From an uncultured Hyphomicrobiales bacterium (GTDB taxonomy: Bacteria; Bacteroidota; Ignavibacteria; Kapaibacteriales; UBA2268): a stretch of DNA of 64,000 bases. The position numbers were made by a program, and so were the translations under genes. Of the stretch, positions 4,914 to 64,000 are shown in pieces; the stretch's first letter is position 1; each line of letters starts with the position of its first letter. The stretch lies in the NCBI GenBank assembly GCA_964581505.1, contig CAZOOR010000006.1:8781-72780 (forward strand), written 5' to 3'. The notes under the pieces are model-generated. The model had not been told where the DNA came from and did no database searches. It was given only the letters and a program-made list of their open reading frames with translations.

Positions 4914-7900
4914 AGAAATTATTAATCATATTGTTGTTATATATTTTTACTGTTAGTGCTTATTCACAGCGGGAAGCATATAATTGGTATTTTGGAAACG
5001 GAGCAGGATTATCATTTGCACCGTCTGGTTCTACCGTGCGAACAATTAATAATGGAGCATTAGCATCGCCTGAGGGTTGTGCCGCTATTTCCGATACAAT
5101 AGGCGGGTTGCTTTTCTATACCAACGGGACAACTATTTGGAACAAAAACCATACAGTTATGTTGAACGGTAGCGGCTTGAACGGCAATGGTGATGCCAGC
5201 CAATCTTCAATTATTATTCCCAATCCACAGCATAACGGATTGTATTATGTCTTTACTCTTAATTCCAATACACGTGCCTTTTCCTATTCCACTATTGATA
5301 TTAGACGAGCCGGCGGATTGGGCGCAGTTATTGAAAAAAATCGTGTGTTGATTAGACCTATTACGGAAAAACTAACGGCAACACTTGCGTCTGACGGAGT
5401 AAATTTTTTTGTTACTGTTCACGGTCTTGGAAATAACGTTTTTTATAGTTATTCTATTACAGCTTCGGGTGTTAATACAACTCCATATATTTCTATGACC
5501 GGAAGTTTGCATAACTCGACTACGGCAAATGCAAAGGGACAGATGAAAATTTCTCCTGACGGTAGAACCTTAGCAATCGTAATACCTGATGATGAAGTTT
5601 TTCAAATATTTGACTATAACGCCGGCAATGGAACGCTCACTAACCCATTGACAATTCCTATTGCCGGATATACACCTTACGGCATTGAATTTTCACCTGA
5701 CAGCAAAATACTATATGTATCAACAGGAAACATTCTGTTTCAATATACTATCGAAAGTAAAAATTCTACATATATAATAAACTCGCGTGAGGAAATTGCA
5801 CGAGCAAATGAACGGCTTGCGCAGCTACAACTTGCACCTGACGGCAAGATTTATATTGCTTCACTCGGACAGTATTTTATTGCAAGAATAAGCAAACCCA
5901 ATGAAAACGGAGCAAATGCGGGCTTTAGCCTATCCGCAATTAATTTGAACAGAAGAAGCTCGAACAAAGGACTACCGGCATTCGTACAGAGTTATATGAC
6001 TTATCTTTATACACCGAGCATCATCAATGCTTGCGAAAATGAAGATATTCAACTTCGTTGTACGATTTCCCGTGACGCTGATGCCGCTTCTTTTCGCTGG
6101 TCGGGACCTAAGGGATTTTCCTCGACTGAGCAAAATCCTATGCTTTTGGATTTGAAATTATCACAAAGCGGTTATTATAAGATAAGGGTAATTCTCGGTT
6201 CACTAAGTTTTGAAGATAGCATATTAGTTCATATTACACCGGCTCCGAAATCTAAAATTGTACCAAACGGTTCGACCGAACTATGCTATGGAGACACATT
6301 GAGATTATACGCACTGCCGGATAGTTCGCATTATTCTTATCGCTGGTCAACAGGCGAAAGCACACCAAGTATTCTAATCACTCGCGGCAAAAAATATTAT
6401 TTAACCGTGGAGGCAAATGCTTGTACGACACGTGATTCTATTGAAATAAAATCAGTTCCTGCTTTTACACCGCTTATTATTGTTCTCGGTGATAAAGAAA
6501 TTTGTGAAGGCGATACACTACTACTGCAAGCATATCCGCAAAATTCAGGAAATAAATATTATTGGTCAACAGGCGATACAACAGAAAAAATTCTTATTAC
6601 AAAAGGCGGCAAATATTCGGTTACAATTGAACGAGGAAGTTGCCGCCGTACTGCAAGTACGGAAATCATTAGCCTCGAAAAACCGGCAACACGAATTAAA
6701 GCATTAGGTCCAACCTCATTCTGTACGGGGGATAGTGTTGTTCTTGTAGCTGAACCACAAAAACCTAATTATCTGTATCATTGGTCAACCGGTGAAACTG
6801 CACCTCGTATTGTAGTTAAGCACACCGGGAGAATAACACTAACAACGATGGTTCGTAATGCCTGCAAAACGATTGATACGCTCAATATTACTGCCGGTGA
6901 TGACTTGAAAGTGAAAATCAAAACACCACCACCGCCATTTTGTGAAGGGCGTGAAATCGTTCTAATTGCCGAACCGATATCAAGTTCGTATGAATATCTA
7001 TGGTCAACAGGAGAGACGAACTATGTAATTCGAGTGAAGAAAAGTGGTGTCTATTCTGTTAGAGTGAAGGCTCCGGGAGGTTGCGAAGGTGTTGATACGC
7101 TTAATATAATATTTGCTTCGTTACCAAAAGCAATAATTGCACAGGGCGGTAGCGGTGAAATTTGCTCCGGCGACAGCCTATTGCTCGAAGCAACAAATAT
7201 CCGCCCGGACTATTCCTATTTTTGGTCAACCGGTGATACTACACATACTATTCAGGCTAAAGTTGCCGGTCTTTATTCGCTAATTGTTAGCAATAAAGCC
7301 GGTTGTACAGATACAGCAGTATTCGAGTTAAAGGTAAAACCCGCACCTAAAATCAAAATAATAAAAATACAAGCAGAGACTTTATGCAGGGGTGATTCGG
7401 CAATATTAATTGCGCGGACAAATATCGGAAATAGAATACTTTGGTCAACGGGTGAAACAAAAGACACTATTGTTGTCAAGAAAACCGCTCTCTATACAGT
7501 TAAAGTAACAAATGCCGCTTATTGCTCCGCCTTTGATAGTATATTGGTTATATTCAATCCATATAAGGAACCCGAAATAGAATCGGAAAGAGGTTTTGCC
7601 ATTTGCGAAGGCGAGGAAATAACTCTCAAATCCGTACATAAATATAAAAAATATCTATGGAGTACAGGCGATACAACTGCTTCAATTACAATCAATACAG
7701 CAGGCACATATTATTTAACAATAAGCGATACAAACGGTTGTACTGCAACAACATTAGCAGAAATTAAGAATAGGGAAAACTTAATTGAACATAGTTCCGA
7801 AATTGACTTTGCACAAGTGCTGATTAATACCAAGCAAAGTGATAATGTATTTATTCGCAATATCGGAGTGGATACTCTGATTATTTCGGACATCTTCATC

Positions 7901-8776
7901 TTAGGCGCTCCTACGGCTTATCATATATTGTCCCCGCCTACTTTTCCGCTCCGATTGGCAACGGGCGAATTATATCAAATAAATATTGAGTTTACGCCAA
8001 AAGTGTTGAAACATTTTGCTGATTCTTTGGTTATCGAAATCAACGCACCCTGCCAAGATGAGCAATATATCAGGATTGACGGTTACGGAAGTGGATTGGC
8101 GGAAGTTTCTATGCCCGATACAACCGGCATTATTGGCAAAAAGGATTTCCGTATTCCCTTACGTGCAAAAATTGAAGTACTAAACGAGGATATTATTAAC
8201 CTCACATATTCGGCAAAAATCAAATTCTATGCCGACATATTTCTGCCGAAACTACTAACAAATGGTATTATCAGGCATGATACGATTATTGCCGGTGAAC
8301 GAATTTTGACGATACAAGACAGCAACGTTATTCTAACTCGAGGCGAGAGCGTACTAACTGAATTATCGGGTATGGTGTTACTTGGTAGGCATACCACAAC
8401 CCCTTTTGATATTTATGACTTGAAGACGGATAATGATTTTATTGATATAAGCACACGGGACGGAAGCCTAAAAGCACAGGCTGTATGTATGCAAAATCTT
8501 AATATTATTAATACTTCCAAAGCGGCATTAATGATTATTAGCCCAAATCCGGCAAATGAGATTATTACAGTTCAATTTAATCATTTACCACAGGCGAATT
8601 ATAATCTGAGAATATATAGTACGGACGGCAGAACAATAGCAAACCGAAGTATAAATATTAGGAAAGGAAAAAATGAATTTGAGCTTGATTTGAGATATTT
8701 CGCCACCGGTACATATATAGTAAGATTATCGGGTGGGACTTATATCCTGAACGAGATATTAAACGTCATTAAATAA
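4910..8776 (+). CDS. Large T9SS-secreted cell-surface (adhesin-like) protein with 7 tandem Ig-like/PKD-like repeats
   Basis: Signal peptide; seven about 80-aa repeats, each with the pattern C.GD...L.A......Y.WSTGE(T/S)..I....G.Y...V....C...D...I; C-terminal ISPNPANEIITVQFN...GTYIVRLSGGTYI resembles a T9SS CTD. Confidence 0.6.
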   Translation: MKKLLIILLLYIFTVSAYSQREAYNWYFGNGAGLSFAPSGSTVRTINNGALASPEGCAAISDTIGGLLFYTNGTTIWNKNHTVMLNGSGLNGNGDASQSSIIIPNPQHNGLYYVFTLNSNTRAFSYSTIDIRRAGGLGAVIEKNRVLIRPITEKLTATLASDGVNFFVTVHGLGNNVFYSYSITASGVNTTPYISMTGSLHNSTTANAKGQMKISPDGRTLAIVIPDDEVFQIFDYNAGNGTLTNPLTIPIAGYTPYGIEFSPDSKILYVSTGNILFQYTIESKNSTYIINSREEIARANERLAQLQLAPDGKIYIASLGQYFIARISKPNENGANAGFSLSAINLNRRSSNKGLPAFVQSYMTYLYTPSIINACENEDIQLRCTISRDADAASFRWSGPKGFSSTEQNPMLLDLKLSQSGYYKIRVILGSLSFEDSILVHITPAPKSKIVPNGSTELCYGDTLRLYALPDSSHYSYRWSTGESTPSILITRGKKYYLTVEANACTTRDSIEIKSVPAFTPLIIVLGDKEICEGDTLLLQAYPQNSGNKYYWSTGDTTEKILITKGGKYSVTIERGSCRRTASTEIISLEKPATRIKALGPTSFCTGDSVVLVAEPQKPNYLYHWSTGETAPRIVVKHTGRITLTTMVRNACKTIDTLNITAGDDLKVKIKTPPPPFCEGREIVLIAEPISSSYEYLWSTGETNYVIRVKKSGVYSVRVKAPGGCEGVDTLNIIFASLPKAIIAQGGSGEICSGDSLLLEATNIRPDYSYFWSTGDTTHTIQAKVAGLYSLIVSNKAGCTDTAVFELKVKPAPKIKIIKIQAETLCRGDSAILIARTNIGNRILWSTGETKDTIVVKKTALYTVKVTNAAYCSAFDSILVIFNPYKEPEIESERGFAICEGEEITLKSVHKYKKYLWSTGDTTASITINTAGTYYLTISDTNGCTATTLAEIKNRENLIEHSSEIDFAQVLINTKQSDNVFIRNIGVDTLIISDIFILGAPTAYHILSPPTFPLRLATGELYQINIEFTPKVLKHFADSLVIEINAPCQDEQYIRIDGYGSGLAEVSMPDTTGIIGKKDFRIPLRAKIEVLNEDIINLTYSAKIKFYADIFLPKLLTNGIIRHDTIIAGERILTIQDSNVILTRGESVLTELSGMVLLGRHTTTPFDIYDLKTDNDFIDISTRDGSLKAQAVCMQNLNIINTSKAALMIISPNPANEIITVQFNHLPQANYNLRIYSTDGRTIANRSINIRKGKNEFELDLRYFATGTYIVRLSGGTYILNEILNVIK
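6236..7765 (+). repeat. Intragenic tandem DNA repeats (period about 240 bp, 7 units) encoding the Ig-like repeat array
   Basis: Recurring YxWSTGE(T/S)/Cys-containing modules in the translation; units are diverged, not identical. Confidence 0.6.
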
Positions 8777-8874: not shown

Positions 8875-9477
8875 ATGAAGTACAACGGCCCAAAAGTGAA
8901 AATTTCGAGGAAATTGGGGCTGGAGCTAACTCCCAAAGCCAGAAAAGTTACACAAAAGAAAAATTACGGTCCCGGACAGCACGGTCCGTCAAGAAGACGT
9001 TCCAAGCAATCGGATTACGGTCGTCAATTGCTTGAAAAACAAAGATTAAGACTGCAATATAACATTTCCGAAAAGCAGATGTCCAATTATTACAAAAAGG
9101 CATCTAAGCTTGTCGGTAATACCGGTGATTTGTTGATTCAATTAATGGAATCACGTCTCGATGCTTTTGTTTATAGAGCAGGTTTTGCAACGACAATTTA
9201 TGCGGCAAGACAATATGTTTCGCACGGACACTTTAATGTCAATGGTCGCCGTGTGAATATTCCTTCTTATTCGCTTAAACCTAACGATTTAGTTGGCGTT
9301 CGCGAAAAAAGTAAAAAGCATATAGGTATTCAGGAATCTATCAGAAATGCCGGCGCTCCTACGTATATCGAACTCTCGAAGGCGGACTTTAACGCTCGCT
9401 ATTTGAATGTTCCCGAGCGTGAGGATATACCTGTTATTTGCGAAATTCCTCTCGTTGTAGAATATTATTCGAGATAA
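8875..9477 (+). CDS. rpsD: 30S ribosomal protein S4
   Basis: MKYNGPKVKISRKLG... N-terminus and S4 RNA-binding domain; 200 aa. Confidence 0.9.
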   Translation: MKYNGPKVKISRKLGLELTPKARKVTQKKNYGPGQHGPSRRRSKQSDYGRQLLEKQRLRLQYNISEKQMSNYYKKASKLVGNTGDLLIQLMESRLDAFVYRAGFATTIYAARQYVSHGHFNVNGRRVNIPSYSLKPNDLVGVREKSKKHIGIQESIRNAGAPTYIELSKADFNARYLNVPEREDIPVICEIPLVVEYYSR

Positions 9478-9592: not shown

Positions 9593-10237
9593 ATGCGCAA
9601 GATTATTATTATTTTAATAATGCTATCTTCATTTTGTTTTTCAGAAGACGACTTTATGAATGACTCAAATCGATTCCTAGGTAGCGAGAGAATGAATATG
9701 GGATTAGGTGCTTTAACAGTATTATGCTATAAAACCGAAAACAGTATTTCCTCTTTTCTTGATTTCCCTCTATATTTTAATTACAGTTTTAGCCATTTTG
9801 ATAGATTGAGAATTTTTTCCAATCAGGGAATATATCAATCATCTTTAAATGACAAAGCCTTTTTTGCGGCATTGAGTGATTATGGATTGGAGTATGCTCA
9901 TTTTCTAACAAGAGATGGCGATAATAATATTGCTTTTAAATTGAGACAGAATTTTTTTAGACTGAACGCTCATCGACAATTTAATAGTATCACCAGCCTT
10001 CAATTCTTATTTGAACAACAATTATTCTATTCGGCAGACCCGAAAATAATTGGCGATTTGCGCATATTTACCATCATTGGTGTCTCCTATATGTATGAGA
10101 AAGATAAAGGATATTTTTCCTTACTCGCCGGTATCTCTCTGGCAAATAGTCTCCGACTCTCTTTTGATTTTGGTTCACTGATTTACAGAAGTAATTTCAT
10201 TAATATGATTTATCCATCTGTAGCAAATGGCTATTAA
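9593..10237 (+). CDS. Hypothetical secreted protein (possible small beta-barrel)
   Basis: Signal peptide; aromatic-rich alternating pattern; no recognisable motifs. Confidence 0.25.
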   Translation: MRKIIIILIMLSSFCFSEDDFMNDSNRFLGSERMNMGLGALTVLCYKTENSISSFLDFPLYFNYSFSHFDRLRIFSNQGIYQSSLNDKAFFAALSDYGLEYAHFLTRDGDNNIAFKLRQNFFRLNAHRQFNSITSLQFLFEQQLFYSADPKIIGDLRIFTIIGVSYMYEKDKGYFSLLAGISLANSLRLSFDFGSLIYRSNFINMIYPSVANGY

Positions 10238-10286: not shown

Positions 10287-11171
10287 ATGATTATGAAAAG
10301 AAGAGAGTTTATCATAGGAATATCATCGCTTGCACTTGCTCTGCCGTTTGCAGCAAGGGCAGGTTCTCGCTTTCCTACTATGTCAAATAATTCCACTTTT
10401 ACTAAAATAATTGAAAAGGCAGTGGCAAAGCAGTGGAGTGATTTGCCGCTTAGTACGGTTATCGGCAATGTTGCAAGCGAACTGCTTGGGAAATCCTACA
10501 AGGGCGGCACTCTTGATATTTATTCAAAGGAAAAATGTATTATCAATTTAGATGAACTTGATTGTGTTACATTCTTTGAAAACTCTTTGGCTCTTGCACG
10601 GCTCATCAAGCAAGAAAAATATTCCTATAATGCACTTATTGAGCAAATTACATTATTGCGTTATCGTAAAGGTATTATTAACGACTATACTTCACGTCTG
10701 CATTACACAGCCGATTGGATTTATGACAATGTAAGGAAAGGAACTATTGCAGATATTTCAAAGCAAATTGGGGGCAAAACAATTAAATTCAATGTCTCTT
10801 TTATGTCCAAGCACCCACAATACTACAAACAGCTGAAGAATAATCCTGCATTTGTGAAAAGTATCAAATCATTCGAGACTGCAATTAATAAAAGAATTTA
10901 CTATTATATTCCTAAATTGCAAGTAAGCAAAATAGAATCAAAATTGCAGACAGGCGATATTATAGCAATAGTCAATACAAATAAAGGCTTAGATTATTCG
11001 CACACCGGATTGATATATCGCAAAGCAGGCAAAGCACATTTTATGCACGCTTCATCAATAAAGAAGAAAGTAATTATTGATAAAACCATTTCTCAATATT
11101 TAGCACATTCTAAGAAATCCAATAAAGGAATAAGCGTTTTACGTCCTTTGGAGCCGGAGAATGCCGAATAG
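10287..11171 (+). CDS. Tat-signal secreted NlpC/P60-like amidase-family protein (DUF1460-like), putative muropeptide amidase
   Basis: MIMKRREFIIGISSLALALPFAARA twin-arginine-like signal; candidate Cys (ELDCVTFFEN) and His (YSHTGLIY, HFMHASS) residues; sits directly upstream of an AmpG-like MFS gene. ORF track start 10227; internal Met chosen. Confidence 0.35.
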   Translation: MIMKRREFIIGISSLALALPFAARAGSRFPTMSNNSTFTKIIEKAVAKQWSDLPLSTVIGNVASELLGKSYKGGTLDIYSKEKCIINLDELDCVTFFENSLALARLIKQEKYSYNALIEQITLLRYRKGIINDYTSRLHYTADWIYDNVRKGTIADISKQIGGKTIKFNVSFMSKHPQYYKQLKNNPAFVKSIKSFETAINKRIYYYIPKLQVSKIESKLQTGDIIAIVNTNKGLDYSHTGLIYRKAGKAHFMHASSIKKKVIIDKTISQYLAHSKKSNKGISVLRPLEPENAE

Positions 11172-12591
11172 CAAAATGTACACTTCTCGGAACCAATCAA
11201 CATTTACAATAGTTCGTACATTGCCGTCAAAGTTTTGGTTATTGAACATTTTACAGATGTTGGAAAAACTTGCTTATTGGTCGGTGCTATTGCAAATGTC
11301 CGTATATATTGCACAGAAAGATGTAGCCGGCGGTCTCGCTTGGGAGCAATCGCTCAAAGGTATAATATTTTTTATTTGGGCAATGCTTCAAAATCTAACA
11401 CCATTCTTTTTAGGTGGCATACCTGACAAATTCGGCAGGAAAAGAATATTATTACTCTCACTTTTCCTTATTATTCTTTCATATATTGTACTTGCAACAC
11501 AGACGGCATTTGTTCCGTTTCTTGCAGGAATCCTTTTACTTGGTTTTGCTTCCGGCTTGTTCAAACCTGCATTGCAGGGCGCTCTGGCGGCTACACTGAA
11601 CGGGAAAAATACCTCTATCGCTTGGGGAATATATTTTATGTTGCTCAATCTTGCGCTGATAGCCGCACCGCCATTGTCCAAATACCTGAAGGAATTATCT
11701 TGGGCGGCAGTATTTTGGGGTTCTGCTCTTATTATACTAATTAATTATTTTATAGCTTTCTTTTGGAAAACGGACAACATTTCCGTAAAAAATGTGGATT
11801 TGTTTAGTCCTGTCAGAACTGCTATGAAATCATTTGCACGCCCCCAAGTTTATATGTTTATTTTGTCTATGTCCGGCTTTGCAATAATATATATGCAGTT
11901 CTACGAAACATTTCAAAATTTTATTATTGATTGGTCGAATACATCATCAATCGCCAAATCACTGCCGCAGTTTATGACAAGTGAAACACAAAGAGGAATA
12001 ATGATTTCATACGAGTGGCTATATTTTATTAATTCAATACTTATTACATTTTTCATTGTATATATTTCGAAACTTACAGGCAAAATACCAAAAATAAAAG
12101 CAATAATTCTTGGGGTACTACTCTCTACGGCAGGCATAGCGCTTGCAGGAACTACGATTAGCGGTAGTTTCCTTATTTTCGGTTTTGTTGTATATACATT
12201 CGGAGAGATGATAACAAACCCAAAATTTACCGATTATCTCTCATCAATTGCAGGAGCTAATGAAAAATCAATGTATCTCGGTTATCTCAATCTTTCAATG
12301 GCAATAGGTCTTGGTTCGGGGGCTTTACTCGGTGGTTTTCTATATGGGCATTTTGCAGAAAAATCAGCATTAGCTATGCGATATTTGTCGGAGCATGGCA
12401 TTAGCATCGCCGGAGTTAATGCCGGCAAAGCATTATTATACCTATCCAAGCAACTACACATTACCGAGCAACAAGCAACAGAGTTACTTTGGAACAGCTA
12501 CCACCCTTGGATTATGTGGATACCATTTTTAGCAATTTCAATATTCTCCGTAATTTGCTTATACCTATATTCAAAGAAATTTAAATCATAA
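11161..12591 (+). CDS. MFS transporter, AmpG-like (putative muropeptide permease)
   Basis: 12-14 predicted TM helices; MFS motif A GGIPDKFGRKR between TM2 and TM3; overlaps the upstream amidase-like gene. Confidence 0.5.
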   Translation: MPNSKMYTSRNQSTFTIVRTLPSKFWLLNILQMLEKLAYWSVLLQMSVYIAQKDVAGGLAWEQSLKGIIFFIWAMLQNLTPFFLGGIPDKFGRKRILLLSLFLIILSYIVLATQTAFVPFLAGILLLGFASGLFKPALQGALAATLNGKNTSIAWGIYFMLLNLALIAAPPLSKYLKELSWAAVFWGSALIILINYFIAFFWKTDNISVKNVDLFSPVRTAMKSFARPQVYMFILSMSGFAIIYMQFYETFQNFIIDWSNTSSIAKSLPQFMTSETQRGIMISYEWLYFINSILITFFIVYISKLTGKIPKIKAIILGVLLSTAGIALAGTTISGSFLIFGFVVYTFGEMITNPKFTDYLSSIAGANEKSMYLGYLNLSMAIGLGSGALLGGFLYGHFAEKSALAMRYLSEHGISIAGVNAGKALLYLSKQLHITEQQATELLWNSYHPWIMWIPFLAISIFSVICLYLYSKKFKS

Positions 12592-19389: not shown

Positions 19390-19476
19390 AAACCGCATCC
19401 TTCAGGGTGCGGTTTTGTGTTCTTGCTGTTCGCTCACTCGCTCTTTGGAAAAGGGCTGGGGTGAGTCGGCTGTTTG
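19390..19476 (+). repeat. Dispersed intergenic repeat, copy B
   Basis: Same hairpin (AACCGCATCCTTCAGGGTGCGGTT) followed by CGCTCACTCGCTCTTTGGAAAAGGGCTGGGGTGAGTCGGCTGTT. Confidence 0.6.
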
Positions 19477-23551: not shown

Positions 23552-24190
23552 ATGAATATACCGTCACCAATATTCCTTTATCGAATTATCCATATAAATA
23601 ATTTGGAGAAGATATTGTATGAGGGAAAGCTCATTTGTCCTGCCGGTATTGAAAAAGATAATAACTATATTTCAATCGGTGATAATACATTAATAAAAAG
23701 CAGAAGAAATAAAACAATAGATATATCACCTTTTGGGGATTTTTCCGATTATATTTCTTTTTATTTTGGGTATAGGTCGCCGATGCTGTATAATATTCAA
23801 AATGGATATAATAATGTAACAAAAAGAAAACCTGAAGAAATTATTTATCTTGTTACATCATTTGATGAAATAAAGAGAAGAAATACAAAATATGTATTTA
23901 CAGATGGACATGGTTATCATCATTTATCACAATTTTTTAATGTTGAAAACGATTTAAATAATGTAGATTGGAAGGTTGCGAAATCAAACTTTTGGTTTGA
24001 TAATGAAGATGACCCTGACAGAAAAAGAAGGAAGCAAGCGGAATTTTTAGTTCATAAAGAATTGGATTTATCGGCTATTAAACAAATTGCTGCATTTAAT
24101 AAGAAAGCCGTTGATAAAGTTACCGAATTACTACAAAAAAATAATATTAACATTAAAATATCAATCAAATCGGAATGGTATTATGATTAA
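23552..24190 (+). CDS. darT: DarT-like DNA ADP-ribosyltransferase toxin (DUF4433)
   Basis: 212 aa; N-terminal IFLYRIIHINNLEKILYEG (DUF4433 hallmark), central FYFGYRSPMLY, C-terminal KQAEFLVH with candidate catalytic Glu; immediately followed, with overlapping start, by a macrodomain gene. Confidence 0.7.
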   Translation: MNIPSPIFLYRIIHINNLEKILYEGKLICPAGIEKDNNYISIGDNTLIKSRRNKTIDISPFGDFSDYISFYFGYRSPMLYNIQNGYNNVTKRKPEEIIYLVTSFDEIKRRNTKYVFTDGHGYHHLSQFFNVENDLNNVDWKVAKSNFWFDNEDDPDRKRRKQAEFLVHKELDLSAIKQIAAFNKKAVDKVTELLQKNNINIKISIKSEWYYD

Positions 24191-25217
24191 GTATAAAAAA
24201 GGAAATATCATTAATGAACCCGTTGAGGCGCTTGTAAATACCGTTAATACTGTTGGGATTATGGGCAAAGGTATTGCCCTTGCTTTCAAGAAAGCATTTC
24301 CCGATAATTACAAAATTTATAAGAATATTTGTGATAAAAATGAATTCGATATCGGTGATATTCTGATAACCGAAACAGGTTCACTTTTGCCAAAATACAT
24401 TATTAATTTCCCGACCAAAAGGCATTGGCGGAATCGTTCAGAAATGGAATATATTGAAAAAGGTATGAAAGAACTTATCAAGAAGATAAATGAATATGGT
24501 ATTCAATCAATTGCAATACCGCCCTTGGGTTGTGGCAACGGTGGGTTAAAATGGAATGACGTAATACAAATTATTCTTGATGAACTTGCTACCCTCAATG
24601 ATGATATTGATATTGTCATTTTTGAACCGGGGTTTAATGAACAAACCATGCCGACCAAAAAACATATCGAACTCACTCCCGCAAGAGCTATGTTTTTATC
24701 TGCTTTGAATAAGTATCGAATTTTGGGTTATTCGGTTAATTTGCTTGTTGCTCAAAAAATTGCTTATTTTTTGCAGCAGCTGAACGAACCGCTCAATCTC
24801 GATTTTGAGAAAGGTTTTTACGGTCCTTATTCAAACAGATTACAACATCTACTTAAATATCTAAACGGCTATTATTTGGTTTTCGATAATGAATCTACCA
24901 AACCCGATAGTATAATTACATTGAAACGTCAGGAAGAAGTTTCTCATTTTGTAAAATCCTCTTTATCCGATGAACAAAAATCCAGATTAGAAGTATTACA
25001 ACAATTAATTGAGGGCTTTGAATCACCATACGGTTTGGAATTGCTTGCAACTGTTGATTTCATTATCCAACATAACAAAATATCCGATATAAACGATATT
25101 GAAAATATTATTGCCGATTGGACAAAAAGAAAAAGAGAAATAATGAAACCATATCATATTGAGAAAGCATATCGGCGTTTACAAGAATTATATAACAGTA
25201 ATACTTTGCTTGTTTGA
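24183..25217 (+). CDS. darG: DarG-like macrodomain antitoxin (ADP-ribosyl-DNA hydrolase + C-terminal DarT-binding domain)
   Basis: Internal in-frame ATG at 24183 overlaps the darT stop (TTATGATTAA). N-terminal macro domain (NTVNTVGIMGKGIALAFKKAFP..., IAIPPLGCGNGGL), about 345 aa. ORF track start 24087 is inside darT. Confidence 0.7.
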   Translation: MIKYKKGNIINEPVEALVNTVNTVGIMGKGIALAFKKAFPDNYKIYKNICDKNEFDIGDILITETGSLLPKYIINFPTKRHWRNRSEMEYIEKGMKELIKKINEYGIQSIAIPPLGCGNGGLKWNDVIQIILDELATLNDDIDIVIFEPGFNEQTMPTKKHIELTPARAMFLSALNKYRILGYSVNLLVAQKIAYFLQQLNEPLNLDFEKGFYGPYSNRLQHLLKYLNGYYLVFDNESTKPDSIITLKRQEEVSHFVKSSLSDEQKSRLEVLQQLIEGFESPYGLELLATVDFIIQHNKISDINDIENIIADWTKRKREIMKPYHIEKAYRRLQELYNSNTLLV

Positions 25218-41399: not shown

Positions 41400-41640
41400 G
41401 TAATGTTCTAATTCAAATCGCACCCTGAAGGCTCCGGTTAATTTATATCCCTATCCTAACCGTATTCTTTAGGTTACGGTGATGTACATCGCGATTGTTC
41501 TCATTCTCGCCCTTTGGGAGATGGCTGGGGTGTGGGTGCGGCTGTTTGCTTTTCTTTTCCCTCTTTGCTTTGATGAGGGGTGGATTGACGCGCAGCGTCA
41601 GAACGGGGTGGTGTGTCTTTAACTTTCTTTGATTTTGCTG
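41400..41640. repeat. GC-rich structured intergenic block containing dispersed-repeat copy C (possibly two degenerate cores) plus extra palindromes
   Basis: CTCGCCCTTTGGGAGATGGCTGGGGTGTGGGTGCGGCTGTT matches the core of copies A/B; GACGCGCAGCGTC palindrome; ACCGTA..TACGGT hairpin. Confidence 0.5.
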
Positions 41641-60033: not shown

Positions 60034-61485
60034 ATGGAAGATTTTTTACTTATTATTTACTTTGTATCGCTTACAATTTTATTCTCGTTTGGTATTCACG
60101 GTCTGGTGATGCTCTACTATTATCGCAAGACCCAGCATATCAAAACACCTGATTTGAAAATTGAGGGTGAGTATCCTATGGTTACGATTCAATTACCTAT
60201 GTACAATGAAATGTACGTCATTGAACGCCTAATCAAAGCTGTTTGCAATATTGAATATCCAAAGGATAAATTGCAAATCCAAGTGCTGGACGATTCGACC
60301 GATGAATCGACAATCATTGCTTCCAAACTTGTTGATGAGTACAAGGCTAAGGGATACGATATTGATTATATTCATCGGACAAATAGAGATGGATATAAGG
60401 CTGGTGCTTTGAAGGAAGGACTTGAAAGAGCCAAAGGTGAATTTGTCGGTATATTCGATGCGGATTTTGTACCTAACAGCGATTTCCTAATAAAGACCAT
60501 ACCATATTTTATAAACAAAAAAATCGGTATGGTGCAAACTCGCTGGGAACATCTGAATGAAGAATACTCATTTATTACGCGTGCCGCCGCTCTGGCACTC
60601 GACGGACATTTCGTAATTGAGCAACAGGTACGCAATAAAGCAGGTTTCTTTATCAACTTCAACGGTACTGCCGGTGTGTGGCGTAAGGAAACTATTATTG
60701 ATGCAGGCAATTGGCATGCAGATACTTTAACAGAGGATTTAGACCTTAGCTATAGGGCGCAACTAAAGGGGTGGAAGTTTGTCTTTCTTAATGATGTTAC
60801 TTCGCCGGCTGAATTACCGGCAGACATCAATGCTTTGAAATCTCAGCAATTCAGATGGACAAAAGGCGCTGTGGAAACAGCCAAAAAGATTTTACCAATG
60901 GTATTTCGCTCGAAATTGCCATTGAAGATAAAACTCGAAAGCTTTATTCATCTTACAAGCAATATAGTATTTCCGTTTATTATTCTCGTTGCAGTTCTTA
61001 ATATTCCGCTTGTTGTCATTAAGAACACTATCGGCGGCTATGATAATTATTATACTTTAATGTCGGTATTTGTTTTAGCTTCGATTTCTACTTTTATGTT
61101 CTATATGTTTGCACAGAGAGCCATACATTTGGATTGGCGAAAGCGATTGCTTTTATTTCCGGTTTTTCTTGCCGGTAGTATGGGCTTTGCAGTGAATAAC
61201 AGCAAAGCGGTTTTCGAAGCATTAATAAACAAGAAAACAGGATTTACAAGAACTCCGAAATACAACATTGAAAATGAAAAGGACAAGTGGACGAATAAAA
61301 AATATGTTCAAAAGAAACTCAGTTGGACTGTATTTGTCGAATTGTTCTTAGCTTTTTATTATGTTGTGGGGATAGCTATTTCCGTTTATTATCTGGAAAT
61401 TGCCGCTATACCGTTCCAACTTTTATTCTTGCTCGGCTTCGGTACAGTCGGTTATATGTCCTTGAAACATTCTCTTGCTCATTAA
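60034..61485 (+). CDS. Family 2 glycosyltransferase, processive type (cellulose-synthase/NodC-like) with C-terminal TM segments
   Basis: DDSTDES, DAD (FDADF), QQFRW (QxxRW) motifs; N- and C-terminal TM helices. Confidence 0.7.
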   Translation: MEDFLLIIYFVSLTILFSFGIHGLVMLYYYRKTQHIKTPDLKIEGEYPMVTIQLPMYNEMYVIERLIKAVCNIEYPKDKLQIQVLDDSTDESTIIASKLVDEYKAKGYDIDYIHRTNRDGYKAGALKEGLERAKGEFVGIFDADFVPNSDFLIKTIPYFINKKIGMVQTRWEHLNEEYSFITRAAALALDGHFVIEQQVRNKAGFFINFNGTAGVWRKETIIDAGNWHADTLTEDLDLSYRAQLKGWKFVFLNDVTSPAELPADINALKSQQFRWTKGAVETAKKILPMVFRSKLPLKIKLESFIHLTSNIVFPFIILVAVLNIPLVVIKNTIGGYDNYYTLMSVFVLASISTFMFYMFAQRAIHLDWRKRLLLFPVFLAGSMGFAVNNSKAVFEALINKKTGFTRTPKYNIENEKDKWTNKKYVQKKLSWTVFVELFLAFYYVVGIAISVYYLEIAAIPFQLLFLLGFGTVGYMSLKHSLAH

Positions 61486-61517
61486 TTCTAAGAATTAATA
61501 GATAGCATATATATTTC

Positions 61518-61623
61518 AACCGCATCTTTTAAGGTGCGGTTTGAAATAGCCGAGATACGCTCAAAAGACAAACAGCCGACACACACCACAGCCCTCTCCC
61601 AAAGGACGAGGGTGGAACAGCCG
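61518..61623. repeat. Dispersed intergenic repeat, copy D (hairpin AACCGCATC-TTTTAA-GGTGCGGTT; core in inverted orientation)
   Basis: Reverse complement GGCTGTTCCACCCTCGTCCTTTGGGAGAGGGCTGTGGTGTGTGTCGGCTGTT matches copies A/B. Confidence 0.55.
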
Positions 61624-61721
61624 AATACCCCGCCGCTCACAGATTGTCGAACGTGTTATTATTATTCCTGCTGCCGCAGGAATGACAGTAGTGCGAGAAA
61701 AAAAGACAAAAGGTAGAATAA

Positions 61722-61775
61722 CCAGCCCTTTCCCAAAGGGCAAGTGGGCGTATAGGTGAGCGGTGCATGACCAAA
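61722..61775. repeat. Dispersed intergenic repeat, copy E (inverted core)
   Basis: Reverse complement CGCTCACCTATACGCCCACTTGCCCTTTGGGAAAGGGCTGG matches the core. Confidence 0.45.
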
Positions 61776-61928
61776 CAGATATTAAAAAATCATTTAATAA
61801 CTTCATTTTTGTTAGATATACTCAATTACATATATATATCTTATTTGCAATACAAACATAGTTGGATAAACTGATATATGTAAATTATATGCGAAAAATT
61901 TATTATATTGCGTTTATACAGGTGTTAG

Positions 61929-62762
61929 GTGTTATATGAGAGAAGCAATATGAAAGTAACATTATTAAATAAAACACTATGGAAACAGTATTTTACTGTT
62001 TTAGGAATAATTGGAGTTATAACAAGTTTTGTTACAATATTTGTTACAATTGATGATAAGTATAAATTATGTTCTGGGATAATTTTTTTAATATTTTTAA
62101 TTCTTGTTTTTCTTTACTTGCTATATATGGCAAACCATTTAGATCGAATTAAATTAAAAATTAATGGCTTACTCATAAACATTTTCTATGGAGACATATT
62201 TGAAGCACAAGGTCTTAAAGTAATTCCTTTTAATGAATATTTCGACACTGTTGTTGATAATAAAATTATTGCAGAGAAAACATTGAATGGTAAATTTATT
62301 AAAAAGTATTATTCTAATGTTAATGAACTTGATACTCAAATAGAAACAGCGTTATCTGATAAGCCATTTACAACTAATAATGCAAGAGCATTAGGGAAAA
62401 AGAAAAAATATGAATTAGGAACAACGATTGAAATTGAGAATGAATATCTTTTAACAGCATTCACTCACTTTGATTCTAAAAATAAAGCATACCTTTCAAA
62501 AATCGAATATTTACTATGTTTAGACAAATTATGGAAAGAGTTGAATAAAATATACGCTCAACGAGATATTAATATTCCATTACTTGGTTCTGGAATTTCT
62601 AGAATTGGAAACAACTTGAAACTTCAAGATTATTTAAATATTATTCTCACTTCAATAAAACTATCAGATTTAGATAATGCTTATAATACAGCAATAAATA
62701 TAATATTACACGAAAGTGTAAAAAATGAAATTAATTTATTTGAAATAAAATCAAAATTTTAA
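61929..62762 (+). CDS. Two-TM + Macro-domain protein, type II Thoeris ThsA-like effector
   Basis: Two hydrophobic helices (YFTVLGIIGVITSFVTIFVTI; LCSGIIFLIFLILVFLYLLYMA) then a Macro-like domain: INIFYGDIFEAQGLKVIPFNEYFDT, LLTAFTHFDSK, INIPLLGSGISRIGN (compare DarG IAIPPLGCGNGGL). Alternative start at Met 61950. Very AT-rich. Confidence 0.5.
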   Translation: MLYERSNMKVTLLNKTLWKQYFTVLGIIGVITSFVTIFVTIDDKYKLCSGIIFLIFLILVFLYLLYMANHLDRIKLKINGLLINIFYGDIFEAQGLKVIPFNEYFDTVVDNKIIAEKTLNGKFIKKYYSNVNELDTQIETALSDKPFTTNNARALGKKKKYELGTTIEIENEYLLTAFTHFDSKNKAYLSKIEYLLCLDKLWKELNKIYAQRDINIPLLGSGISRIGNNLKLQDYLNIILTSIKLSDLDNAYNTAINIILHESVKNEINLFEIKSKF

Positions 62763-62773
62763 AGGAGACTATT

Positions 62774-63343
62774 ATGGCAAACAGAACGGGAAATTACAGT
62801 ACTTTCTATGTAAAAGAACCTTTTAAAGAAACAAATTTAGGAGCTAACATAGCAAAGGATTTTGTGTATTATAACACATTGAGAATGTGGAAAGGCAAAG
62901 ATTCGTCCTTCCCATTTATTGACTCTCATATGAAAAATTATAATGTTAGAGATGGAAGTGATTGGGAAACTACTTTAAAACCAAGATTAAGAGCAAGATT
63001 AAGTGCATCAAAAAATATTATCTTGTTTTTAAGTTCGATAACTAAAAGTTCAAGAGCATTAAGGGAAGAAATAGATTATGGGATTAATATAAAAGGACTT
63101 CCTGTTATTGTTATTTACCCTGAATACAATAGTATAAGTAATATTATAAATTGTTCATCTGGAACAATTAAGAAAAAAATAAAAGATCTTTGGGATAAGT
63201 TGCCAATATTTAGAAACTCTATGGATAGTGTGCCTACTCTTCATATTCCAATGAAAAAAGAAATAATCACAAAAGCATTAAAAGAGCCTAAATTTAAAGT
63301 TGCAACAAAGGGAGAAGCAGGAATATATTATTACCCTTGTTAA
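62774..63343 (+). CDS. TIR-like protein, ThsB-type (DUF1863/MTH538-like)
   Basis: 189 aa; aligns by eye to the Bacillus cereus ThsB pattern: YSTFYV versus VFFSFHY; FIDSHM...LKPRL...NIILFLSSITKSSRALREEIDYGINIKGLPVIVIY versus VFDASLW...LKRLI...VTCVLIGSQTFNRRWVRYEIMKSIEKGNKIIGIHI. Confidence 0.45.
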   Translation: MANRTGNYSTFYVKEPFKETNLGANIAKDFVYYNTLRMWKGKDSSFPFIDSHMKNYNVRDGSDWETTLKPRLRARLSASKNIILFLSSITKSSRALREEIDYGINIKGLPVIVIYPEYNSISNIINCSSGTIKKKIKDLWDKLPIFRNSMDSVPTLHIPMKKEIITKALKEPKFKVATKGEAGIYYYPC

Positions 63344-63546
63344 CCTTTTAAAATGAAACCAATATAAACAGAAAATACAACACCTAACATTGTGTATAAG
63401 CAATGGCGGGCAAAGTGCTAAAAATGAACAAATATGAATAAAATAAACAACAGTGAAATAATAAAAGTTAGTGCGGAAAAACCCGCCACTGCTCATACAC
63501 TTGGCCGTTAGCGGGCATATGAATTAAAAACCAAATAGGAAAAAAA

Positions 63547-64000
63547 TGGATATTTTAACAAAATCAGAACTATTAAGTTATAGTAAGGCAAAGAAAACTT
63601 ACACAAGAATAACTGAAAGTCTTAAAACTTTCAGTAGAGAAAGCAAGTATAATAAAGTTACCATATTTCTATCCCACAAGCACACTGAAACTGATGAATT
63701 AGAAGCGGCTATTAGTTTTTTAAAACAATTTGGTGTTGATGTGTATGTTGATTGGATGGATGAAGAAATGCCAAAATATACGAGTGGTAAAACTGCTGCT
63801 AGAATAAAAAGCAAAATTGAAGAGAATGATAAATTCATTCTTTTAGCAACTGACGGTGCAATAGCATCAAAATGGTGTAATTGGGAGTTAGGCTTGGGAG
63901 ATGCTCATAAATATATTGATAAAATTGCTGTTTTACCTGTAAAAAAAGATTATGGACAATATAATGGTTCAGAATATTTGCAGATATACCCATACATTGA
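63547..64000 (+). CDS. TIR-domain protein (TIR_2-type), second ThsB-like gene; 3' end beyond the window
   Basis: Translation from ATG 63547: VTIFLSHKHTETDELEAAISFLKQFGVDVYVDWMDEE...IKSKIEENDKFILLATDGAIASKWCNWELGLGDA is a canonical bacterial TIR signature; no stop before position 64000, so absent from the ORF track. Confidence 0.6.

Follow-up and report, generated by a model that had tools for sequence, protein, structure and literature searches.

Two TIR-signalling modules at the window edge

The window analysed here, a 64,000-nucleotide stretch of contig CAZOOR010000006.1 from an uncultured bacterium, ends in three co-oriented genes that fill positions 61929-64000 and encode, in order, a membrane protein with a Macro domain (ThsA), a TIR protein (ThsBa) and most of a second, different TIR protein (ThsBb). 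An earlier interpretation, made from the letters of the window and hereafter called the sequence-only reading, had described these genes as one horizontally acquired type II Thoeris-like anti-phage locus, truncated at the window edge. Analysis of the same DNA together with its continuation on a public contig indicates instead that the window very probably ends in two Thoeris systems in tandem, type II and then type V, the latter lying mostly past the window edge.

The block stands apart in composition. The GC content of 61924-64000 is 0.278, against 0.367 for positions 1-61485, which makes it the most AT-rich 2-kb stretch of the window (3.3 standard deviations under the 2-kb-window mean). GC content at third codon positions is 0.14-0.20 in the genes of the block versus 0.37 in the upstream GT2 glycosyltransferase gene. 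The low-GC, co-oriented block was thus correctly recognized at the outset, and its horizontal acquisition is supported.

By exact-protein look-up, the locus was followed onto a metagenome contig from the European Nucleotide Archive (L001/L094) that is 100% identical to window positions 61789-64000 and extends about 10 kb further. The gene order established on this contig past the window edge is a 179-aa TIR_2 open reading frame (ORF), which is ThsBb at its full length, a 143-aa protein (ThsF), a 222-aa ThsB (ThsBc) and a YhcG nuclease (Table 1). Gaps of 12 nt separate the 143-aa gene from the TIR genes on either side, and 240 nt lie between the 222-aa ThsB gene and the YhcG/DUF1016 gene. Beyond the latter, GC content returns to about 0.40 and genes for aldehyde dehydrogenase, TsaD and CinA follow; the low-GC array spans about 4.7 kb between the GT2 glycosyltransferase gene and the aldehyde dehydrogenase gene. 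TsaD is 65-69% identical to proteins with source names, themselves cut short, that start with 'Ign', 'Chl' and 'Can', read here as MAGs of the Ignavibacteria, Chlorobi and Candidatus type. On this basis, the host is probably an uncultured FCB-group bacterium of the Ignavibacteria/Chlorobi type, an assignment of moderate security. A scan for sigma-70 promoters found 18, no different from the 14.6 expected from shuffled sequences, and with terminators scanned as well the transcription units were not resolved.

Table 1. Coordinates of the array and of related features. Positions refer to the window unless a contig is named; L094 is the continuation contig, L102 a contig with thsA-thsBa in another context, and L004 a contig of a Lewinellaceae metagenome-assembled genome (MAG).
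Feature	Position	Strand	Remarks
GTTAGGT core-site-like motif (GTTRRRY)	61924..61930	+	Left boundary of the putative thsA-thsB cassette; L102 homology starts exactly at 61924
thsA (ThsC in the 2025 nomenclature), type II effector	61950..62762	+	Two N-terminal transmembrane helices and a C-terminal ThsA-type Macro domain
thsB (ThsBa), 189 aa	62774..63343	+	Predicted TIR sensor and signal synthase; ThsB_TIR, PADLOC PDLC00421
attC-like site, about 135 nt	63376..63518	-	Closes the putative type II cassette and opens the putative type V cassette
thsB-b, 5' part (151 of 179 codons)	63546..64000	+	TIR_2-type ThsB; no stop codon in the window
Putative type V cassette, thsB-b / thsF / thsB-c	L094 1758-3569 (to ~65350 window-equivalent)		Continuation contig L001/L094
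thsF (143 aa)	L094 2310-2741		PADLOC PDC-M50A; homology to the B. thuringiensis neighbour gene
thsB-c (222 aa)	L094 2754-3422		PADLOC PDLC00428
YhcG/DUF1016 PD-(D/E)xK nuclease	L094 3662-4726 (window-equivalent ~65450-66514)		PADLOC PDC-S02, 4.4e-129
attC-like sites on L094	1588-1730, 3425-3569, 4662-4804		Covariance model; only the first lies in the window
attC-like sites on L004 (xxxAAC...GTTRRRY)	7445-7524, 8613-8688, 9325-9401, 10149-10226, 12214-12290		Each behind an ORF; cassette array
Dispersed repeat copies	19440-19456, 41509-41525, 61591-61607, 61725-61741 (cores 61589-61610 and 61723-61744)	-, -, +, +	

A two-gene type II system

The first ORF runs from 61929 to 62762 on the forward strand and encodes 277 residues counted from a GTG codon, or 270 residues from the ATG at 61950. 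The ATG is probably the true start, because the PADLOC model begins at residue 8, the gene as called by JGI/Logan encodes 270 aa, and the GTG sits within the GTTAGGT core site. The protein matches the Pfam family ThsA_Macro (PF20016; E 1e-56 over residues 83-261, 192 bits against a cut-off of 25 bits) and the PADLOC model for transmembrane (TM)-Macro ThsA proteins (PDLC00413; 1.2e-89 over residues 8-275). Hydropathy, by which TM helices were assigned both here and in the 143-aa protein, locates two hydrophobic stretches, near residues 22-42 and 48-67, whose Kyte-Doolittle maxima over 19 residues are 2.33 and 3.01. The architecture proposed at first reading, two TM helices followed by a Macro domain, is therefore the one found.

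Matches in the PDB are 8V6Q, the Macro domain of E. coli CFT073 ThsA (8.6e-46), and 8R66, the B. amyloliquefaciens Y2 Macro domain with bound histidine-ADP-ribose (His-ADPR; 3.1e-36). With the numbering of 8R66 anchored on the published His-ADPR pocket (D100, N133, Q135, S194, R240 and Y277), ThsA keeps D89, N120 and R225 in place of D100, N133 and R240. The arginine equivalent to R240 contacts the histidine carboxylate of His-ADPR (bioRxiv 10.1101/2024.01.03.573942). The locus resembles the type II systems of both organisms in its thsA-thsB operon, in the composition of its effector, and in three of the pocket residues, the Asp of GDI, the Asn of LNG and the Arg of GSGI(S/T)R.

The second gene follows after 11 nt, with an AGGAG Shine-Dalgarno sequence ahead of it. 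Its product was taken for a ThsB-type TIR protein in the sequence-only reading, and the assignment holds: it matches ThsB_TIR (PF08937; 9.8e-25), the PADLOC ThsB model PDLC00421 (3.5e-72) and the PDB entries 3HYN (5.5e-78) and 9UV0 (2.6e-76), and over 165 aa it is 64% identical to the type II ThsB TIR of B. amyloliquefaciens Y2 listed in Table S1 of a 2025 preprint (Yirmiya et al. bioRxiv 10.64898/2025.12.03.692087). Judged by homology, thsA and thsBa are a bona fide, complete and ordinary two-gene type II Thoeris system.

In type II Thoeris, the TIR protein makes His-ADPR upon infection, the Macro domain binds this molecule, and oligomerisation follows (bioRxiv 10.1101/2024.01.03.573942; PMC11204291). 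By homology to the B. amyloliquefaciens enzyme, ThsBa would sense phage infection and make His-ADPR from NAD+, and the membrane protein ThsA would bind this signal through its Macro domain. Oligomerisation triggered by the ligand would then cluster the TM helices of ThsA, with membrane damage or growth arrest as the predicted outcome.

A TIR-ThsF-TIR trio across the window edge

The third ORF of the window had been identified as a TIR_2 gene that runs off the edge, and it does match TIR_2 (2.2e-8), as well as the PADLOC ThsB model PDLC00423 (5e-60), and lacks a stop codon within the window. The start that had been given for it, 63547, is wrong by one nucleotide: that frame contains 10 stop codons, and the true start is 63546. 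The other TIR protein of the trio, ThsBc, matches PADLOC PDLC00428 (3.3e-82). ThsBb and ThsBc are 52-59% identical to Table S1 TIRs labelled 'DUF2270 - Type V', and ThsBb by itself is 57% identical to one TIR with that label.

The same preprint defines Thoeris types V-XI. Type V consists of ThsB and ThsF, a small three-TM effector labelled DUF2270, and is enriched in Bacteroidota; ThsF of B. thuringiensis is activated by 3' cyclic ADP-ribose (3'cADPR) (bioRxiv 10.64898/2025.12.03.692087). To place the 143-aa protein, we turned to this validated system. Its ThsB from strain DAR 81934 (IMG 2624526259, Table S1) is matched by protein P0121 with 100% identity, and the gene directly after P0121 encodes a 141-aa protein. 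In Table S2, the type V effector is the IMG gene that comes next, 2624526260 (Yirmiya et al. bioRxiv 10.64898/2025.12.03.692087), and we take the 141-aa gene as the validated ThsF. Compared with its product, the 143-aa protein shows 43% identity over 116 aa (BLASTP E 6e-29) and an hhalign probability of 99.85%. Three hydrophobic segments occur in each of the two, and both match the PADLOC candidate family PDC-M50A, the 143-aa protein at 2.4e-42. An AlphaFold2 model of the latter consists of three long helices with a mean predicted local distance difference test (pLDDT) score of 78.

The published family label was of no help in this assignment. For the 143-aa protein, 21 relatives and three plasmid homologues, hmmscan against Pfam-A gave no PF10028 (DUF2270) match at E <= 10, and the precomputed Pfam record for B. 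thuringiensis ThsF is empty. The DUF2270/PF10028 label fails to discriminate ThsF members under HMMER, and membership in ThsF is therefore based on direct homology. PADLOC-DB v2 (2023) already contained this family, represented here by L088 3773-4198 and L001 2310-2741, under the candidate name PDC-M50A; no paper that mentions 'PDC-M50' turned up in a full-text search of the literature. A SLATT-type (type VII) or '3TM'-category effector was also considered for the 143-aa protein and was rejected, the TIR clusters and the direct homology favouring ThsF. In Pfam, the protein and its relatives show no SLATT match and only sub-threshold DUF4395 noise.

Taken together, these homologies make it highly probable that thsB-b, thsF and thsB-c constitute a three-gene type V Thoeris system, in which two unrelated TIR sensors would flank a three-TM effector of the ThsF family. 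Drawing on the analogy of the validated B. thuringiensis system, we expect it to be triggered by 3'cADPR and to form a membrane channel. The trio resembles that system in the length class of its effector, and resembles type V as defined by Yirmiya et al. (bioRxiv 10.64898/2025.12.03.692087) in that its relatives are mostly from Bacteroidota. Unlike B. thuringiensis, where one ThsB gene lies upstream, the trio has a ThsB gene on each side of thsF, and neither ThsBb nor ThsBc belongs to the subfamily of the B. thuringiensis ThsB (PDLC00430).

Alternatively, the trio's TIR proteins could act as NAD+-depleting effectors that do not signal at all, with the 143-aa protein as sensor or anchor in an abortive-infection module outside Thoeris. 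We regard this as highly improbable, since the B. thuringiensis pair behaves as a signalling system: its TIR protein produces 3'cADPR when cells are infected, addition of 3'cADPR is toxic only when the effector is present, the Tad1 sponge blocks defence, and models of oligomeric ThsF contain inter-protomer pockets (bioRxiv 10.64898/2025.12.03.692087).

Each module occurs without the other

The sequence-only reading had joined the TIR_2 gene to thsA and thsBa, as a possible variant of type II with one DUF1863-type and one TIR_2-type ThsB. In its general form, that proposal is of one type II operon in which several ThsB sensors (ThsBa, ThsBb and perhaps ThsBc) serve a single TM-Macro effector and the 143-aa protein is an accessory. 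All of the genes are indeed co-oriented within one low-GC block, and Thoeris loci with several thsB genes are reportedly common. Type II systems with two ThsBs are known, the pair EcThsB1 and EcThsB2 of E. coli CFT073 being the example (PMC11204291).

The distribution of the genes argues for two modules. We surveyed 80 genome loci that carry a homologue of the 143-aa protein, from many phyla but mostly from Bacteroidota, 79 of which could be scored for neighbours. Not one of the 80 contains a Macro ThsA or a ThsBa-type gene, whereas a co-oriented TIR gene is directly adjacent in at least 48 of the 79, frequently in the arrangement seen here, with a ThsBb-type gene upstream and a ThsBc-type gene downstream. 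Three contigs, in two contexts, carry the trio's closest relatives (ThsF 87-92% identical), beside restriction-modification genes and again without a Macro ThsA. Plasmids of Klebsiella, Priestia and Campylobacter carry pairs of a TIR gene and a ThsF-like gene; two further plasmid loci from B. cereus and Priestia (L086 and L087), picked for an annotated ThsF, contain none.

The pair likewise travels alone. On contig L102, thsA-thsBa occurs in a different context and without the trio, its nucleotide sequence being 93% identical; a type IX secretion system (T9SS) sorting domain is also encoded on this contig. All seven ThsA loci on viral contigs have one tightly coupled downstream thsB, none of them contains a ThsBb-, ThsBc- or ThsF-type gene, and one has an additional ThsBa-like ORF upstream. 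In two plasmid ThsA loci, a single Macro gene adjoins a single TIR gene, and their order and orientation vary.

At the locus itself, homology breaks in the spacer between thsBa and thsBb, which at 202 nt is far longer than the gaps of 11-12 nt inside the modules and holds a recombination-site-like element. The predicted signals differ as well. The Macro domain of E. coli ThsA did not bind 2'cADPR or 3'cADPR (PMC11204291), whereas validated type V ThsBs make 3'cADPR, including one that shares a TIR cluster with ThsBb (bioRxiv 10.64898/2025.12.03.692087). From the non-binding of these molecules, we infer that neither module should be activated by the signal predicted for the other. A single operon is thus improbable, and the type II assignment stands for thsA and thsBa but not for the TIR_2 gene, which the downstream contig places at the head of a TIR-ThsF-TIR trio that travels without a Macro ThsA.

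Several observations nonetheless weigh against the tandem of a type II and a type V system. The signals and killing mechanisms of both are predicted from homology. Three of the six His-ADPR contact residues of ThsA differ from the B. amyloliquefaciens protein: T179 stands for S194 (S->T), K122 for Q135 (Q->K) and H261 for Y277 (Y->H). E. coli CFT073 ThsA, whose Macro domain is reported to bind ADP-ribose (ADPR) and IAD, likewise deviates at two of these positions, with leucine for the glutamine and histidine for the tyrosine. The same E. coli TM-Macro ThsA has two ThsBs (PMC11204291), unlike the single ThsB found beside thsA here. On the side of the trio, the failure of PF10028 to match any of the ThsF-family proteins tested, B. 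thuringiensis ThsF in its precomputed record included, is one such point. Another is that TIRs of the ThsBb cluster also accompany type I and type IV effectors, so that the partner effector does not follow from the cluster and cross-talk with ThsA may occur.

The ThsF survey also yielded observations on possible partners of this family. At four loci (L004 6006-6980, L007 3549-4529, L009 3255-4223 and L010 2612-3586), a protein of about 324 aa is encoded 17-38 nt upstream of a ThsF homologue, the latter being 63-70% identical. None of the four upstream proteins was detected as a TIR protein by phmmer, and that of L004 is without a Pfam or PADLOC match; this partner may be a divergent TIR or a non-TIR protein. 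Among 38 unlabelled upstream neighbours of ThsF homologues (L003-L082), Pfam families include Roc/COR-A (7), LRR (4), TIR_2 (9) and ParA-like AAA_31 (6), counted as totals and not per locus, and several ThsF homologues directly follow large proteins. Small ThsB proteins therefore seem not to be the only sensors with which the ThsF family pairs.

attC-like sites at the module boundaries

The element in the thsBa-thsBb spacer resembles the attC sites of integrons. On the plus strand it reads CCTAAC-ATT-GTGTATAAGCAATGGCGGG-(71 nt)-CCCGCCACTGCTCATACAC-TTGGCC-GTTAGCG, with two 19-nt inverted-repeat arms (63392-63410 and 63482-63500) around an AT-rich 71-nt loop and with GTTAGCG at 63507-63513. Its core ends R''/R' are CCTAAC...GTTAGCG (63383-63513), and those of the next copy are GCTAAC...GTTAGCA (L094 3433-3564); positions 6-7 of R' deviate from the RRY consensus. 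On the minus strand, the arms pair without interruption over 19 bp, with G-T pairs at the positions that are A-C mismatches on the plus strand; the folding z-scores of minus versus plus strand are -3.3 vs -2.4, and -2.3 vs -1.1. This asymmetry, G-T on the bottom strand versus A-C on the coding strand, is what one would expect of integron attC sites. Bulges are absent from the predicted stem, and only the spacer between the R and L boxes is asymmetric (5 nt versus 2 nt).

A covariance model built from five copies of the element scores the window site at 165 bits and locates two more on L094. The copy after thsBc carries compensatory changes in its arms, and 6 of 27 pairs covary. No Rfam family matches anywhere in 61300-64000. 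With filters off, the model found no further copy upstream of thsA, and the left side of the array is therefore marked by the GTTAGGT motif only. The model also detects five classical attC-like sites of about 77 nt, which follow ORF by ORF after the ThsF homologue of a Lewinellaceae MAG (Table 1).

The positions at which homology to other contigs begins or ends are consistent with recombination at these sites. Homology to L102 starts at 61924, in GTTAGGT; homology to L091 and L092 starts at 63507, exactly the G of GTTAGCG; and homology to L090 ends at L094 3560, in the GTTAGCA motif at L094 3558. All three breakpoints coincide with the GTT of GTTRRRY-like motifs. The three L094 sites are co-oriented with the ORFs, and they form an array in the sense of at least two such sites less than 4 kb apart.

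The array probably comprises three integron-type cassettes, which carry the Thoeris system of type II, that of type V and the YhcG nuclease. Cassette 1 would extend over 61924-63513, cassette 2 would begin at 63514, and cassette 3 would hold the YhcG/DUF1016 nuclease gene. YhcG-like genes also lie near ThsF homologues in L029, L039, L042, L044 and L059. Farther along L094, at 10333-10473 (+), an inverted attC-like copy (36.5 bits, E ~1e-7) sits beside a second low-GC block (GC 0.23-0.25), whose minus-strand genes encode a 223-aa protein without a Pfam family and a 624-aa Ser/Thr kinase; this block may be another cassette region.

Other features of the array speak against an integron origin. 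The copy after yhcG is degenerate and does not fold, the extrahelical bases of canonical attC sites are not evident, and a phmmer search for intI with a single tyrosine recombinase query, which is a weak test, gave no match in the window, L094, L004 or L102. Since no integrase was found by this weak test, the array is best described as CALIN-like at best (a CALIN being an attC array without integrase), with three cassettes.

The same features would fit a different origin, in which the 135-nt elements are not attC sites but a REP/MITE-type repeat, a transcription terminator or an insulator that lies between defence modules by chance. The absence of a nearby integrase in the single-query search, the stem without obvious extrahelical bases, a length of 135 nt at the upper end of the attC size range, and the existence of another dispersed intergenic repeat in the host all lend it some support. 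It leaves unexplained the CTAAC...GTTAG ends, the asymmetry of the spacer that separates the R and L boxes, the G-T pairs of the bottom strand at positions of A-C mismatch in the top strand, the breakpoints at G|TT in three independent contexts, and the recognition of classical 77-nt attC-like sites in the Lewinellaceae array by a model made from these very elements. On balance, we consider this origin unlikely, and favour integron-type cassettes.

Integron cassettes with defence cargo have been described, among them cassettes of two genes that include ThsB homologues (Kieffer et al. bioRxiv 10.1101/2024.07.02.601719). The array resembles such defence-carrying cassettes (BRiCs) and CALINs in its co-oriented, promoter-poor modules, each followed by an imperfect palindrome that ends in GTTRRRY, and in boundaries that fall at G|TT. 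Unlike BRiCs, it has no integrase or attI that we could identify, the integrase having been sought with one query. Unlike typical attC sites, those found here are about 135 nt long, nearly identical to one another and without clear extrahelical bases, and one cassette holds three genes.

Other features of the window

The dispersed intergenic repeat mentioned above is about 50 nt long, with a core AAACAGCCG...CAGCCCTYTCCCAAAGGRCGAG and a short hairpin, and is present in four copies where none is expected by chance. The two copies that the sequence-only reading had placed upstream of the Thoeris genes are among them. Public contig L001 begins at 61789, just past the last copy, consistent with an assembly break at the repeat.

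That reading had also noted DarTG in the window. The pair, a toxin-antitoxin or defence module, lies at 23552-25217 and consists of DarT (212 aa; PADLOC 4.1e-62) and DarG (376-aa ORF; PADLOC 1.7e-119). In a second low-GC patch (0.28-0.31), a 404-aa ORF at 43701-44915 matches the PADLOC single-gene defence candidate PDC-S01 (7.5e-154).

Implications

Both Thoeris systems are of known kinds, and each locus is an additional member of its kind. The type II module differs from those of B. amyloliquefaciens and E. coli also in its host, probably an uncultured FCB-group bacterium, and in its bounding by attC-like sites. The locus is a compact natural case of two TIR-signalling systems side by side, both with membrane-targeting effectors, whose signals, His-ADPR and 3'cADPR, are presumably orthogonal. 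For annotation, it illustrates that a TIR gene cut by a contig edge beside a Thoeris system should not be assigned to that system by default; the TIR_2 gene here appears to belong to another Thoeris type with a different predicted signal.

Integron-type cassettes are a plausible context for both systems, and one of modest interest. The junctions suggest that each Thoeris system moves as a discrete cassette via site-specific recombination, and we infer that an integron integrase would drive this movement. A broader proposal, that FCB-group bacteria stockpile and exchange whole Thoeris systems (two-gene type II and three-gene type V) as integron-type cassettes, is one we hold only tentatively. 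If it is true, cassette exchange would provide a mechanism for the mixing and matching of ThsB sensors and effectors across Thoeris types, and the long, near-identical sites (about 135 nt) would represent the attC family belonging to a sedentary array, from a lineage whose integrons have been little studied. If confirmed, cassette movement would help to explain the reshuffling of Thoeris sensors and effectors, and the view of integrons as defence biobanks would extend beyond Vibrio and clinical mobile integrons to genomes of the Ignavibacteria and Bacteroidota type.

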